From Phoronis australis (taxonomy: Eukaryota; Animalia; Phoronida), in NCBI GenBank assembly GCA_002633005.1, contig NMRA01000234.1, positions 62,001 to 126,000 on the forward strand: a stretch of DNA of 64,000 nucleotides. The letters are read 5' to 3'. The notes beneath the pieces are model-generated. The model was not told where the DNA came from. It searched no databases and worked only from the letters and a program-made list of their open reading frames with translations. How positions within the stretch are numbered: position 1 is the first letter of the stretch; every line of letters starts with the position of its first letter. Shown here piece after piece: positions 3,801 to 12,800 of the stretch. Made by a program: the position numbers and the translations under genes.

Positions 3801-6800
3801 ATCAGTAATTGACCGCTGTTTTAACAAACAGTGCCTGGCTTTACCGATGTTGTTCTGGGTTGGAGTCAATGCAGTTCTGGTCTGTGTTGGGGCTGCGCTA
3901 GTCACTTACATGGAGGTGAGTCAAGTATTGGTCACATGATCTAAAATATTGTTCTACTACCAAACAGTAGATCTAACTGGACCACCTACATAGTTACCTG
4001 ACCAGTGTAATCTATTGGGTGTAGCAGTTATCCGTTACTTGGACAACATTCAGTAGACCCGAGAATCTAGCAAAATTGAAAAGGAAGACCCGTCATACAC
4101 TGCAAATAATTTTTACATCTACATAACACAGCTCAGCTCTAGCAGCCATCTGTAGTTGTCCAGTGTGTTCTGGTCTGTATGGGAGAATGACTGAGTATAT
4201 TAATTGTTTTGAGGTCTTGTCTGAGACATCTAACTCCATTACGTAAAGCTGGGATGAGTTCCTTTTTGTAACTAAAGGTGCCTAGTATTTTGCAACATTG
4301 TCAGAAGAGATGCCAGGCTAGTTTTCGCATGCAGGTTTCTTAATTACATGCCAGAAATGATTTGTGGGGGGTTAAAGAAAAGGTTAGTGAAGGCGAATTT
4401 GCAAAAATTGTCTGTGCTCACTTCGTGCATTATGAAATTGTTCTGTATTTCAGCCCAATGCTGCTGGAAGCAGTATTCCTCAGGTGAAGTGTTACCTGAA
4501 CGGTGTAAAGATCCCTGGCCTATTGACTGTTCGGGCGCTGATAGCTAAAGCTTTTGGAATTATACTGTCTGTTACTGGGGGACTGGCTTGTGGCAAGGTA
4601 CACGCTAATTACTTTCAATGGGATGCTGACCATTATACCAATCACACTATAGCTAACTGTAGTAACTGTGTTAGGAATACCTGGATATATGTGTCAAATC
4701 CCGTAGTTAATTACATGTAATGTATTATGAGGGTCACAGTTTCAGTAGTTTTAGGTATGGTGAGCATGGGAAACAGTGTTGGTGAAACTTCATTCAAATA
4801 TTGTGATAACATTCAAGTTTTTCTTTTTGATTCTATTACATTAAGGATAGCAATAAAATGTTTTGAAAAATTTATTTTGTACACGTGACATAGAGGTTTT
4901 TAGGACTGATATTTTCAGTGCCCAGTTTTGTTTGTTGTGGTTAATGTGTCTGTCTGAGAGAGAAAATAACTACCTTAATTCAAAAATGGAATTTCGAAGT
5001 TAAAATTGCCGTTAGTCATAGTTTCCTGGCTTGCACTATAGACCTGCTTTCTAGACAGTAATTTTGGATTGTTGATTTGAAGACCAGTTCAACTCTTAAT
5101 ATTATTATCTGTATTTCTTGTTTATGGTTTTTGGTTTTTAAATTTGTAGGTTGCTATCATGACCTGACAGTGTTATGACAAAGCTGAGGCCTTAGAATCA
5201 TTATTGCAGTGTCAGTCAAAATGCAATTTTGCTGTGCAGTGTTATCGGTTAGACAGTTAGTATAACTTGGCTTCATTGGATGTATAATGGGCATACTTTC
5301 AGATGATAACTTTTGCAATTTTTTGTCAGATTTATTCTAACTCTGTTTAGGAAGGTCCAATGATTCATTCAGGAGCCATTGTTGCTGCAGGAATTTCCCA
5401 GGGACGGTCCAAATTACTTAACACAGATTTCAAGGTAATTGTATGTTGAAAGCTGTTACGTAATGTGAACATAAGATTTTGAACATCTTGTCTTGCTTAA
5501 AAACCATTTTGAATGATTTCTGTTTTCTGTGCGATGCTTTTTAAAGGTGTTTTCATACTTTTCTTGACAGTTATGTTGCAAAGTTTAATTGTATGAGAAA
5601 GTCTGGCAAAAGTGGGAACATGACAAATGACAGATTTTTGTCTTGCAGTTTGCATGCTAATGTGGACTGATGAACAACTAGGCCAATTTCTGTTCATCAT
5701 TTCTTCGAAAGGTGGATTTTGGCAAAATTGAGTTACATTAGATCTGTAAATGTCAAGTGTTTTTGCCATTCTTTAGTTTACTGGTATCTAAAAGTAAAAA
5801 TTACACAATCAATAACGCAACACATTAAACAAAATTTATTGTGTCCTGAGAGACCTTGGACATGGTATTTGAAAGGTAGGCAAAATGTAACTACATGTCT
5901 ATGTGATCTTTACACCCACTCTAAACCAATCTTCTGAAACATTTGAATGACCAAGATTTTTCTAGTGTTATACAGACATTTTAGTTAGAACGATGATGCT
6001 AAATTAGTTAACCTAAAATATGTATTTTATGCTTTTTGATTCTGTGACAGCTTGCTGCACTTGTTCTTTTGTACAGTAGGCCTATGGCATTTATGAAATA
6101 AATTGATTGATTGATTGAACATTGTTTATCAACAAGAACTTGGTTCATCATGCAGTAAGAACTTGGTTCATATTCTGTACCATCCTTAATACTGTCAACT
6201 TTTTAAAATCTGTTATCATCTCTTCGCCTGTTTCTCGAAGATCTGATGCTTGTATGTATTCTAGGAAAATATGAGTAGTGAATAGCATTTAATTGCTGTT
6301 GTTTTCTTGTTAGATATTTGAGAACCTGCGTTCTGACCACGAGAGACGCGACTTTGTATCTGCTGGAGCTGCAGCAGGTGTGTCTGCAGCATTTGGTGCC
6401 CCTGTAGGTATGTCATTTGTTCCTCCTGTATGCATGTCATTTACTGCCCCTGTAGGTATGTCATTTGTTGCCCCTGTAGGAATGTCATTTGCTGCCCCTG
6501 TAGGTATGTCATTTGTTCCCCCTGTATATATGTCATTTGCTGCCCCTATAGGTATGTCATTTGCTGCCCCTGTAGGTATGTCATTTGTTGCCCCTGTAGG
6601 TATGCCATTTGTTCCCCCTGTATGTATGTTATTTGCTGCTCCTGTAGGTGTGTCATTTGCTGCTCCTGTAGGAACGTCATTTGCTGCCCCTGTAGGCATG
6701 TCATTTTGCTGCCCCTGTAGGCACATTTTCCAAAGAGTAGATTATTGTGATAGCCCAAGAAAGGACATGCCTCCACCCTTTACACAATCATTTAATGTTA

Positions 6801-9800
6801 TTTATTATAATTTCTGTTGGTGAATGTCTATTTAAGTCAATAGATGAAATAATAGTACACATACGATATAACAAAGTTAATGTTTTTATTTGATGCTGAA
6901 TATTATACGTTGTAGTCTGTGTTCCTTCTAGGTGGTGTTTTATTCAGTCTAGAAGAAGGTGCAAGTTTCTGGAACCAAAACCTCACCTGGCGCATGGTAA
7001 GAGCATTCAGCATTTAAATTGTCTTGTTTGTTTAAGTTTATGTGGGACTCTAGAAAAATGTTCAGTTTTTGTCAACACCACATCTCGAACAGAAATGACC
7101 GAATGAATTCACAGGAAACAGTTATTATGCTTTTTGTGAATAACATGTTCTCCAATGGGCTGTTATGAATTGATTTTAAAACGTCCCACTTCTGCATGAT
7201 GGGCTATCAAAAATAGGACTTATGTGATTGTTATATAAAACAAAAATGACACAATAATTTACAAAACTGCAACACCTTTTTGAGCTGGACATTTGTATCA
7301 TATGAAATTTGGTCATCTAATTGATCCTATTGTTTTTGTTTGAAATGTACATTTTGTTTTTTGTTAAAGTAAAAAACTTACAAAAGAAAATATTTCTCAA
7401 GCAGGCTTATAGATTTGCTGAGTATGAGCAGTGAATTAAAAGCACAATGTTTATTGCAACGGGTCTGTAGAAGTCCTTTCTGTTACATTATTTTGAAATC
7501 TTCAATGTCCAACTGTTGGTTGTCCTTTGGGTCCGAAGATGACGTAGGTTGTGTGTCTCATCGTCTATGTACACGACGATGACTCTGCAGTCCCAGTCTT
7601 GATGCGCAGAGTCGAGAACAGGTGGGGCATTGGAACTCCGTTGTGGTAACAGTGGTGGGTGCTGCTGAGTGGCATTTCTCTCGAGCAGCTTCGAGTCTCC
7701 TACAGCGGTCATCCTCAAAACTGGCAGTTGCTTTTCGAATCGTGGCTCGCCACTTTAGTCTATCCCCTGCAACAGCTTTCAGCTCCTTGGGTTTGATGTT
7801 GCACCACTTCAGGTTGGCTTTGACGGTGTCTTTGTAGCGAAGGCGAGGGCGTCCTTGTTTCCTTCTCCCAGTCTTCAGCTCACCATACAAAAGCTGGCGA
7901 GGCATTCTGTAGTCCTCCATCCTGATGACGTGCTAACCCATCGCAGTTGGGCTTTGAGTAGCATCGCTTCAATGCTGGTTGACTGGGCACGTTCTAGGAC
8001 CTCAAGGTTGGTGATTCGGTCCTGCCATCGGATTCCTAGGATGGAGCGAAGAGAACGCATGTGGAAGCTCTCAAGCTTCTTGATGTGCCTGCGGTAGGGG
8101 GTCCATGACTCGCAGCCATAGAGCAGAGAGGTCAGGACCACTGAAGAATACACCTTCAGTTTAGTAGACAGGCGGATGTTGTGTTTGTTGAGCACCCGTG
8201 TTCTCAGTCTTCCAAGTGCCTTGCTTATCCTGGAAGCAATCTCTTTGTCTAAGCTGCCATCTTTTGAGATGACGCTCCCCAGGTATTTGAAGTGCTCCAC
8301 ATTGAGGAGTTGCTAGTTGTTGATGGTAATGACTGGCTCCGGGGGATTGGTGTTGGTTGCAGGTTGAAGAAGCACTTCTGTCTTGCCGAGGCTTATGGTC
8401 AAGCCGAATGCTTTGGAAGCATTCGAGAAGCTGTCCAGCATGAGTTGTAGGTCATTCTCTTTGTGGGAAAGGAGCGCACAATCATCCGCAAAAAGGGCGT
8501 CCTGGATTAGTTTTTCCAGGCACTTTGTCTTTGCACTAAGGCGCCTTAGATCGAAGAGGGAGCCGTCGAGGCGATATTTGATGTACACACCCTCCTCTAA
8601 TCCCTGCATAGCTTGGGTCAACATGCACGTGAAGAAGAGGCATCTTCACCTGTTGCTTCGCCACTCCCCCATCGCTGCAGGACTTGAAAGGTGATCGGAA
8701 ATGATGAATCACACAACAAACCTGTGCGTGATGGTTTTTTAAAGTGGTAAAGCCGTTGCACTGGGACAATCCCACTCTCTCAGCTGAGTAAACATTGATC
8801 CAGTGGCACAGAAAACTGTTACGGCTGGAGGTTACCCCTGCTGCAGTGGATGACCATGACTTCTTTGGTGCCTCGTCATGCTCTGAGCACTCCACGGCGC
8901 TTGCTGAAACCGCCGTCTTGGCTATTGGACCACTTGGGGTCTCATCCACTCAGTCTGCCGGAGCCAGTCTTCACATGCTAGGGTAGGCAGTCCCTAACTC
9001 ACCGAGGGTTTGAGACCCGTCGGCTACCCTCAACCTGGTTTAGCCCGCCTGTCGAAGCGGTGTCCCGGGGTGTGGCCGCTGCGCATGCTACAGCTACTTG
9101 GAGCCACAGGTGAGAGCTGAGGACAGGTGGGGACCAAAGGTGGATGAACTACCCCCGAAGGAGTACGACAAGCCCCCCCACCAGAGGTACTACCCCTCCG
9201 TGGATCCTCCATACACCCCCAATGTCCAACTATTGTATTATTATTATGCAGTACAACAGAACTATATGTGATCTTGGTTTTAAGCAATGGTTCTTGTAGC
9301 TCTCATAGTTCTTAGAAAGCTGTGTCAATACAAACTAAGTGTTGTTTCCATAATGGAAAGTGGTCTTTGCCTTTCTGGTATGACATCTTTCATGCTGTGA
9401 CAATAACCTATATGCCAAGCTTTGAATTCTTTTAAACTAAATTCTCTCAGATTTTGAAACAAATGCAATGTCTGGAATCAATACAAAAGTACAACTGATT
9501 ACATTTCCCTGAATGATTTTTATTTCAGGTAGAAGTTGTTTGATCCACAACAGTAACTATAATTAGTTTGGACCTTCGCTTGTCTTTGTAGGTGTTTGCC
9601 TCTTTCACAGCCTCATTTGGTGTCAATATCATCATCAGTGCTATTCACAACACTCCTTCAGAGTTATCTCACCCTGGTCTCATCAGCTTTGGCCTTTTCA
9701 AGGTAAGTTTGCAATGACGTTGTCTGTATCTGGACATGTTGTTCCCTCCAAATCTCCTGTTAAATCACATCTGCAAAAACGAAAATGGTCATTCTTGCAT

Positions 9801-12800
9801 GGTTTCACAAAAGAGAAATTCTTTCATTTTTTGTGTTTAAATTTGTTGTAACGTCATGCTTTTGACAAAAATAAAATGTTGATGATAGGGTAACACCACA
9901 ACTATAAATAGATCAATGGTGCGCTCACATGCTCCATTGTCATACTTCTTGCAATTTTACTTCTCAAATAATACTATCTGCATTACTTAACATTCCAGGC
10001 TCAGCTATTCAGCTATCCTTAAAGGCTAATAAAACAATTATCTCTCAGCCAAGACCATAAAGCAGTGTATGGTTACTCAGTCCAACTAGGACAGTTGCAC
10101 AGCTTAGACCAAGCTTCACAAAAAACTGCTTTCACAGACCTTATATTTGTCATAATGCTGTGTCAGAGACTGTGGTTGTCCCTAGCCAGAAGACACACAG
10201 TGTAAGCTGTACTTGTCAATAGGCCGAAGTAGCGTGGATTGGTCGGGCATTCACTTGAACCAAGGACCTTTAACACGGAATTTAAAAAAATCTTGGGGTG
10301 GGTGTTTGTGCAGGACTTGGGTGATTGTAGGGAAATTTTGACTGAAAACAGAGAGAAATATGTTATCAGCACATGTTGTCATAAATTTTACTGATATTAT
10401 TGGTAACACTATCAATTTTTCTTCACTTCACTGAAATAAGCATGAGGACGCCTCTTTGATGATGAGCTGACATCTTAATGCTCTCTATATGGCCCATATC
10501 TATATGGTCCATCTCTATGTGGCCAATCTCTATATGGCCCATCTCTATGTGTCCCATCTCTATATGGGTCATCTCTATGTGGCCCATCTCTATGTGGCCC
10601 ATCTCTATGTGGCCCATCTCTATATGGTCCATCTCTATGTGGCCCATCTCTATGTGGCCCATCTCTATGTGTCCCATCTCTTTATGGCCCATCTCTATGT
10701 GGCCCATCTCTATGTGGCCCATCTCTATGTGGCCCATCTCTATATGGGTCATCTCTATATGGCCCATCTCTATGTGGCCCATCTCTATGTGGCCTATCTC
10801 TATATGGCCCTTAATGGCCTATCTCTCTTTTTTTCTCTTTCTTACAATGCACATTGAGAGCGTATTAAGCACTGGACTTGAATGGAATTGAGAGCAATGA
10901 TATAATCTTCAAAGAAAATAATGAAAAGCAAACTCTGTTTTGCAGAAGGAGACTACTAGATATGAAGCTATAGAGTTACCCATCTTCATTGCCATGGCGA
11001 TAGTAGGAGGCATCTTGGGGGCATTGTTTGTTCATCTCAACTACCATCTGACTCTCTTCAGGAAGAAGTAAGGCACAGCTGTAGATAGTGATTTATGACA
11101 TCACGGTGGATACAAATTAGAATTTCGATTAATATTCATGAGGACTCTTACAACTCTAGCTGTGACTCAGTGGCTTCTTGCATGGCATGGCTGTGTTGTA
11201 AACACTGCAAATGTGCATAAATGCAATTTTTTATCCTCGCCCATTTTAAAATGCTTTGCATTGTTTTACAAAGATGTGTGAGGTGTGACTATTTGTGACC
11301 TAGGTATGTCACCCGCAACTGGCAGAAGCTGGTAGAAGCCTCTTGTGTGGCAGCTGTCAGTGCTGTGGTCATGTTTATCTTCCTCTATATCTCTGTGGAA
11401 TGCCAGCCAATGACAGAGAAGGACGCACACGCACATAACTTGGCTCAGGTGGGGTTTATGTATAGTGCTAAGTTGCAATACAAATACAACAAAGGCTTAA
11501 GAGTCAATGAAATTCCGAGCCATGCCTTGTGCTCTTGCAGCCTAATGGTTGTAGCCAAAGTTTCATTTGTGTATAGGTCCATCATATGTATACAGATAAA
11601 AATGACATGAAGTGCTTATAGTAGCAGAAATGGAGAATCCTACACTCATCTCTGGTTTATAACATCGACACGAACTTCTAGTTGCTGTCTAATTTTCATT
11701 TTCATTGCAAAGTAACAACTGGATAGTGTAACCAGTCATCTGATGTTCAGTTGAGGTGACCCACTCCACAGTTTGTATTATGCTGCTATAAATATGAGAT
11801 TTATGTTGCAGATGTGGTGCCCAGATGGTCAGTACTCCTCCTTCTCAAAGTTAGCTTTAGTCACACCAGAGGCCGCTCTGAAGAACATGTTTCATATGCA
11901 TGCTGGTTTGTAATAATTATGAAATGTATCAATACAAGTGTTAACTCAAAGATTGTAGTTTTTAATTGTCTTAAAATCTCTTTGTATTTGTCTATACGTG
12001 ATTTTAACTAAATATGTTTTTTTACAAAAAGTAAGTCACAGGAGTAACCAGTGGGGTTCCACAGGTGCGAATGCACCTTCCCATGGATTCCTGAGGTCCA
12101 CTGCACTCAATGCACTGGCCACTTTAGATCTCCCTAAGTTGGAATAACTTTGTTTCTAATTGAGTTTGAAGAATCAGTTGACGACCTGAGGAAAATTGGT
12201 CAGTTAGTCACAATTTCGCACTGGTCCGTTGTAATAGCTGGGCGCGCATGTATTTGTACAGTTCTTCAAATGTATTATTGTAATCATGAGGTGTTTGTAG
12301 TCACATGACAGTGGAGGGCACGTTTTTTTTATCTTCCACTCCTGGCAATAAGTGCCTTCATAGCTATGCTGTTGTCTTCTTCTAGTTTGAGTTAGGGGAA
12401 ATTAACTTATTACCTGATGAGTGGATTGTAGCTTAATTGCACATGATACTTTAATATTAATTCTTTTCTTGATTTTGCAGGTACTTATAGTCAAGGCTTC
12501 CTGGCAGTGTTTGTCATCATATACTTCCTGTTGGCTTGTTGGACGTACGGACTAAGTGTATCCAGTGGAATATTTATACCTTCACTTCTGATTGGTGCCA
12601 CTTGGGGGCGCCTCATTGGAACTGGTGTCAGCCACTTGTACCCAGAACAGGTGTGGCCATGGTTGCCATCGGGATTTCTTATGAAGTAAAATTGACATAA
12701 AAATTAAGCACAAGTCACAATGAAATAATCAGTGTGTATTTCTAAGTCATGCCATTTTCATCTGTTATACCTGGGAGTAATTATAGTTTTCTTGACATGC

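Follow-up and report, generated by a model that had tools for sequence, protein, structure and literature searches.

A predicted HDV-like ribozyme with a hairpin in L3 at the first base of an RTE-type retrotransposon

Introduction

The 64-kb window of Phoronis australis DNA analysed here contains a retrotransposon copy whose 5′ end had been proposed, in a reading made from the sequence only, to fold as an HDV-like ribozyme with an atypical L3. HDV-like ribozymes have been described at the head of RTE, R2, R4, R1, LOA and Ingi/L1Tc retrotransposons, and at the 5′ ends of RTE and other LINEs they free the element RNA from the host transcript (PMC6765202, PMC5786205). An HDV-like ribozyme heading an RTE element is already known, and the question raised by this locus is whether the fold is real and what its long L3 consists of. 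The U-G pair to which the catalytic metal binds is part of L3, whose length search descriptors fix at 7-8 nt.

Results

The element is inserted, on the minus strand, within an intron of a plus-strand CLCN7-like gene. An upstream exon of this gene matches human ClC-7 (E 8e-10), and of the two exons flanking the element one ends near 6998 and the next starts near 9592. The parts of the copy are as follows.

7519 to 9219, minus strand: internally deleted RTE-type LINE of 1,701 bp, within the CLCN7-like intron
9220 to 9235, minus strand: 5′ copy of the target-site duplication (TSD); G9220 is nucleotide -1
7503 to 7518, minus strand: 3′ copy of the TSD, with a 12-bp perfect core
7561 to 8638, minus strand: frameshifted remnant of the C-terminal RT region with a zinc-finger-like end

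The two 16-bp TSD copies (9235-9220 and 7518-7503) are identical at 15 of 16 positions, with one mismatch. Because the TSD ends at 9220, the element starts at G9219, the first base of P1, and the predicted cut site coincides, as had been claimed, with the element boundary at 9219/9220. A short CAA-type 3′ end stands beside the TSD, as is expected of the RTE clade. The first 580 nt of the element are 5′ UTR, which near 8640 gives way to the final third of the RT ORF; comparison with the relative L016, to which the RT remnant is 56-67% identical, puts the missing part of the parent element at about 2.3 kb. Like the bipartite or internally deleted RTE elements (PMC5786205), the copy preserves both termini of an autonomous RTE, the extreme 5′ end included; unlike them, it retains about 360 codons of the ORF end. 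The copy cannot encode its own protein, and no second copy of the element was found within the 64-kb window. With the host gene on the plus strand and the fold on the minus strand, the fold is antisense to CLCN7, as the sequence-only reading had it; we regard the copy as an antisense intronic passenger with an internal deletion, which would not cut the CLCN7 pre-mRNA.

The fold occupies the first 193 bases of the element, with two further features beyond its 3′ end.

9213 to 9219, minus strand: P1 5′ strand, with predicted cleavage directly 5′ of G9219
9117 to 9212, minus strand: J1/2, 96 nt, a long interrupted hairpin with compensatory changes
9106 to 9116, minus strand: P2 5′ strand
9103 to 9105, minus strand: P3 5′ strand
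9096 to 9102, minus strand: L3, canonical 7-nt part
9077 to 9095, minus strand: L3 insertion of 19 nt, made of A, a 5-bp stem (9094-9090 / 9082-9078) with a 7-nt loop, and G
9083 to 9088, minus strand: hexamer in the loop of the L3 hairpin, predicted to form the 5′ strand of a third pseudoknot
9074 to 9076, minus strand: P3 3′ strand
9067 to 9073, minus strand: P1 3′ strand
9065 to 9066, minus strand: GG, P1.1 3′ strand
9045 to 9060, minus strand: P4 hairpin, 6 bp (9060-9055 / 9050-9045)
9040 to 9044, minus strand: J4/2, with C9043 as the equivalent of C75
9027 to 9039, minus strand: P2 3′ strand, with two bulged bases
9002 to 9023, minus strand: conserved hairpin just 3′ of the ribozyme core
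8973 to 8978, minus strand: hexamer further downstream, predicted to form the 3′ strand of that pseudoknot

P1, P2, P3, P1.1 and P4 follow one another in the nested double-pseudoknot order. P1 is a perfect 7-bp helix on the minus strand (9219-9213 / 9073-9067, all Watson-Crick), and P3 (9105-9103 / 9076-9074), the GG at 9066-9065, P4 and J4/2 with C9043 all lie at the positions that had been proposed. L3 is indeed long, at 26 nt (9102-9077). P2 is bulged, as described, and can be drawn out to 11 bp (9116-9106 / 9039-9027, two bulges), which leaves 96 nt for a J1/2 that had been given as 98 nt and moves the end of the fold from 9029 to 9027. Folding by nested minimum free energy is not a test of this structure, because P1 and P2 cannot appear together in it.

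The match to HDV extends to the dimensions of the helices. The genomic and antigenomic HDV ribozymes likewise have a P1 of 7 bp, a P3 of 3 bp and a P1.1 of 2 bp (PMC3386971, PMC13635239, PMC1874588), a U and a G at L3 positions 1 and 6, and a C in J4/2. P1 in this class is 6-7 bp long with a G1-pyrimidine pair, and here it has 7 bp in six of the seven sequences that we aligned, five of the seven pairs remaining in L021; the partner of G1 is U in genomic HDV and C here. Within the canonical part of L3, U9102 is the equivalent of U20, C9101-C9100 form P1.1 and G9097 would be the equivalent of G25, with which U9102, a base fixed by our search pattern, is expected to pair. C9043 stands in a J4/2 of the CNRA form, its conservation in relatives having been fixed by the same pattern. 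L3 and J1/2 are both long, unlike the L3 of 7-8 nt and short J1/2 described for HDV, which has no third knot.

A relaxed HDV descriptor allowing an L3 of 7-35 nt, written with the sequence already in view, gave a single match over both strands of the window, at the element start; with L3 held to 9 nt or less the same descriptor found no match in the 64-kb window. By chance it matched four times in 619 dinucleotide shuffles of the window and twice in 16,664 shuffles of the element. It had also been proposed that standard descriptors would miss the fold, and they do. The published RNArobo descriptor, which asks for an L3 of TYYHCGY and a J1/2 of at most 51 nt (PMC4870747 supplement), fails here on three counts, the L3 of 26 nt, the A instead of C at L3 position 5 and the J1/2 of 96 nt, and we therefore file the ribozyme as a variant and not as a member of that descriptor. 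Rfam gave no ribozyme family among its six matches in the window at E up to 10, and none for six relatives at E up to 1.

As the sequence was already known when the descriptor was composed, relatives of the element are the stronger tests. A metagenome scan, with a pattern that fixed P3, P1.1, J4/2 and the base of the P2 helix and left P1, L3, P4 and J1/2 free, yielded 28 loci, seven of them relatives and 21 chance matches. Since the pattern fixed them, the invariance of P3, P1.1, the catalytic C and the base of the P2 helix among these loci is no evidence. Scans of viral contigs gave 2, 13 and 17 loci, all chance matches, with none in one further scan, and a prokaryote scan gave 38 loci, again chance matches only. 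The full relaxed descriptor was passed by five of 81 loci (L006, L009, L016, L023 and L026), all of them relatives of the element. L006 and L016 have intact ORFs of 1,109 and 1,096 aa, in each case the single AP endonuclease and RT ORF of about 1,100 aa without an ORF1 that marks the RTE clade, and homologues carry PF03372/PF14529 and PF00078; the ORF of L023 is frameshifted, L009 and L026 are copies of a short non-coding derivative that are 93% alike overall, and L012 and L021 are one insertion seen twice. The RTE label is our assumption from the single endonuclease-RT ORF of the intact relatives and general knowledge.

The first base of the element is shared. As the proposed check of 5′ ends would predict, all five long-L3 relatives begin at the P1 G, after flanks that are unrelated, L009 and L026 included; no TSD was found for these five. 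Contigs from organisms C and E include three pieces that stop at 9219, and there is a loose end at 9218. One of these pieces is inverted, from 9174 to 9219, as would be expected if the RNA template ended there, and probably arose by twin priming. A contig of run X14 shows a 5′ inversion (window 9134/9219), the inverted piece ending exactly at the first base of the element. Truncation at the 5′ end is normal for LINEs, and organism A has 5′-truncated copies too (loose ends at 9070, 9135, 9188 and 9199).

A comparison of L3 across the relatives divides it into two parts. The first seven bases, UCCAAGU in the window, vary among relatives at positions 4, 5 and 7, with position 6 always G. This G, which the search pattern left free, was present in 7/7 cases (family loci plus the window, L012 counted with L021) and in 4 of 27 distinct chance loci. 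In all six long-L3 copies the seven bases are followed by an insertion consisting of A, a 5-bp stem, a loop of 7-10 nt and G, giving an L3 of 26-29 nt; the stem pairs in 29 of 30 cells, and its changes are one-sided only. L021, with a protein identity of only 29%, combines the same core with an L3 of the seven bases alone and lacks the downstream hexamer; because its core carries these bases by themselves the hairpin can be placed as an insertion 3′ of the G25 equivalent. An organism C contig (loose end 9081) has the fully canonical UCCUCGU ahead of the hairpin. The earlier description of L3 as atypical with an inserted hairpin was right, with the refinement that the copies have a 7-nt canonical loop with a hairpin at its 3′ end and not a remodelled loop. 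In antigenomic HDV the base after the G25 equivalent is bulged out and poorly conserved (PMC3386971), and by analogy the hairpin would project from that position. Short-L3 relatives also occur in organisms B and C, and L021:791-975 (and L012), the distant element with a 7-nt L3 (29% aa), has J1/2 motifs as well as P4 and J4/2 in common with the long-L3 family.

The covariation that the earlier reading had proposed to look for was seen in the relatives, as compensatory changes in P1, P2, P4 and J1/2. In the unfitted MAFFT alignment of seven sequences (A2, 46-93% identical), 92.7% of 427 cells pair and 18 of the 62 pairs change on both sides, four in P1, one in P2, two in P4, one at an inner L3 pair and ten in J1/2, whose helices were predicted from the same alignment. 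The observed pairing was reached by none of 500 shuffles, a comparison in which related sequences can beat shuffles, and structures slid along the alignment pair at 41-54%. In P3 a G-C to A-U swap was seen in a single short-L3 contig of organism B (loose end 9074).

The earlier reading had recognised the L3 hairpin but missed a conserved partner of its loop downstream. A complement of the loop hexamer (9088-9083) stands 105 nt downstream of it, at 8978-8973. When the first 600 nt of each of the six long-L3 copies (262 nt for L026) were searched for the loop complement of lowest energy, the homologous hexamer came out every time, tied in the window copy with one site far downstream. A U-A pair of this pairing is C-G in L009 and L026, and two further pairs are wobble in some copies and Watson-Crick in others. 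A comparison of six-column windows in five copies covered 16,230 pairs, with L023 left out because MAFFT misaligned its longer loop; ten were fully paired and three of these had a compensatory change, two of them in P1 and one being the loop-hexamer pairing. With L023 kept as MAFFT aligned it, the loop-hexamer pairing leaves the fully paired list; L023's own loop matches its own hexamer exactly. A contig of organism B, with 11 of its 16 differences displayed, seems to lengthen this match to 8 bp, G-C replacing G-U. What supports the third pairing is one compensatory event common to two close copies, together with this single contig, displayed in part. Of 500 shuffles of alignment A3, 246 reached the observed number of doubly changed pairs and one reached the covariation score. 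The window copy, L006 and L016 have a palindromic loop hexamer; the L009 loop, which is not palindromic, is the exact reverse complement of its downstream hexamer. Taken from comparison of sequences, the loop-hexamer pairing is likely to be a third pseudoknot. A homodimer through the loop palindrome is not favoured, L009 lacking the palindrome, and pairing between the 5′ and 3′ parts at the deletion joint is unsupported, the matches in the window copy being no longer than 7-8 nt (E no better than 0.6).

Three RNA-seq runs of one study carrying the same species label gave 53, 43 and 22 reads, and no site where many molecules begin was found in them. Almost all of them run in the same direction as the few reads from CLCN7 exons, which is antisense to the element, and they derive largely from other element copies; for both reasons they are uninformative on cleavage. 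Some reads come from a copy with a different internal deletion, its 5′ UTR at 8702 being joined to the RT near 8519. This copy (loose ends 8702 and 8640) is transcribed antisense to the element in all three runs.

Discussion

The reading that we prefer, and consider probable, is that the first 193 bases of the element are an HDV-like ribozyme that would free the RTE RNA before G9219, and that the L3 hairpin likely forms a third pseudoknot. The ribozyme would cut 5′ of G9219 and so release the element RNA from the upstream host transcript. In HDV catalysis a C protonates the leaving group and a Mg2+ ion sits near a U-G pair (PMC13635239); carried over to this fold, that chemistry would make C9043 the general acid that protonates the leaving group, and a Mg2+ near the U9102-G9097 reverse wobble would activate the 2′-OH. 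There is a local competitor to this structure, in which P3 is extended to 7 bp with bases from P2 and P1, at -14.7 kcal/mol against -7.2 for P3 alone, and which is therefore 7.5 kcal/mol more stable locally. Bracing of the native core against competing states is the most likely role of the third pairing, and an inhibitory or protein-binding role is possible. The third pairing would disfavour the 7-bp extension of P3 and thereby favour cutting once about 250 nt have been made, which is the weakest part of the proposal. As for the window copy, all of its helices are retained and it has a G at -1. In genomic HDV a G at -1 is the slowest base, more than 25-fold slower than U (PMC1874588), which by analogy would be unfavourable for the window copy.

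Three alternatives were weighed against this reading. A chance match in a G+C-rich 5′ UTR could be suspected, since the descriptor was drawn up with knowledge of the sequence, from which the pattern that found the relatives was also taken. We find this hardly credible: the descriptor matched only four times in 619 shuffles, the fold coincides with the TSD boundary, and compensatory changes are found in parts that the pattern left free; the covariation has already largely refuted it. It is unlikely, though a more serious concern, that the fold is real and does not cut, or cuts too slowly, due to the L3 insertion, an internal promoter setting the 5′ end. The knotted RNA could then serve in end protection, recruitment of the RT protein or as an aid to translation. 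Nested folding favours the extended P3, closed by a standard U9102-G9077 wobble, and all six long-L3 copies retain G9077; half of six copies have a G at -1, which can also arise by cap copying, although in the window copy this G is part of the TSD. The first 77 nt of L1Tc are both promoter and ribozyme (PMC3383444). Against this, the equivalent of G25 is kept in 7/7 cases while its neighbours vary, the organism C contig with UCCUCGU before the hairpin is fully canonical, and P1 covaries and fixes the boundary to the base.

It is also conceivable that the ribozyme cuts and that the L3 hairpin is a tolerated or separate module, the match of loop and hexamer serving another step than bracing, and this we also regard as unlikely. 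Such a step could be an inhibitory switch, protein binding or the pairing of two RNAs through the near-palindromic loop. The hexamer is a palindrome in three of the copies (window, L006, L016), CPEB3 ribozymes dimerise in crystals via an L3 palindrome (bioRxiv 10.1101/2022.09.22.508989), downstream sequence inhibits some trypanosomatid ribozymes (PMC4035085), and the short-L3 relative keeps the core without either partner. The exact complement of loop and hexamer in L009, however, fits intramolecular pairing and not a homodimer or a repeated protein site. For the preferred reading of a cleaving ribozyme braced by its third pairing there is a wider form, to which we give even chances, namely that a widespread RTE lineage carries a triple-pseudoknot HDV-like ribozyme in which the hairpin would act as a brace or switch and make self-cleavage depend on synthesis of the remaining 5′ UTR or on the binding of the protein that the element itself encodes.

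The fold resembles the HDV-like ribozymes of other retrotransposons in its position at the first base, in its nested double-pseudoknot order and in its predicted release from a co-transcript; it differs from those described in the available texts in its L3 of 26-29 nt with a hairpin and in its predicted third pairing downstream. The closest likeness in J1/2 is drz-Agam-2-1 of the mosquito, which has a long structured J1/2 and an extended P2 (12 bp there, 11 bp here) and in which J1/2 and the long P2 speed cleavage by pinching P1 and P2 (PMC4908430). The available text on drz-Agam-2-1 mentions no L3 insertion such as the one here, and there was no Rfam match to it. The additions to the known kind would be the L3 hairpin and the predicted third pairing, which may already be drawn in earlier figures. 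In the literature searched we found no L3 hairpin or third pseudoknot for the class, with the proviso that Ruminski 2011 and Webb and Luptak 2011 may show a hairpin, and that the figures or supplements of Webb 2009 and Weinberg 2015 may show such variants; the sequence motifs of the variant are absent from the text of the Kojima supplement.

A conserved natural hairpin in L3 would show that the loop tolerates a domain, would mean that descriptor and Rfam searches overlook a common family of animal ribozymes, and would give a new engineering site for switches beside the active centre. A third pseudoknot would add a type of peripheral contact that is unexpected for the class. The RTE element RTE-1_MD has been used in one gene-writing platform (PMC13708176), and the variant could have some relevance to RTE-based gene-writing templates.

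Several minor features of the copies deserve mention. In L009:2719-2734, L016:3882-3897 and L026:1795-1810 the P1 5′ strand is doubled at a distance of 9 nt, which makes two cleavage sites possible; homology begins at the first. L009:2719-3330 is an element of about 610 nt that lacks an ORF and joins the 5′ UTR, ribozyme included, to the 3′ end; L026 is a second insertion of this element. The first 330 nt of the window copy (9219-8890) are closest to L006 (83%), nt 330-520 of the element match L016 and L023 better, and the RT remnant (8640-7560) is nearer to L016 than to L006 (67% vs 50% aa), a mixed affinity that might reflect a swap of the ribozyme module between subfamilies. The CLCN7-like gene itself contains a 15-bp tandem array at 10423-10890 with several frames open, and a 24-bp tandem array at 6342-6754, the unit of which spans an exon end with its GT donor. 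The latter array creates many in-frame copies of the 5′ splice site, and a variable exon length is possible.
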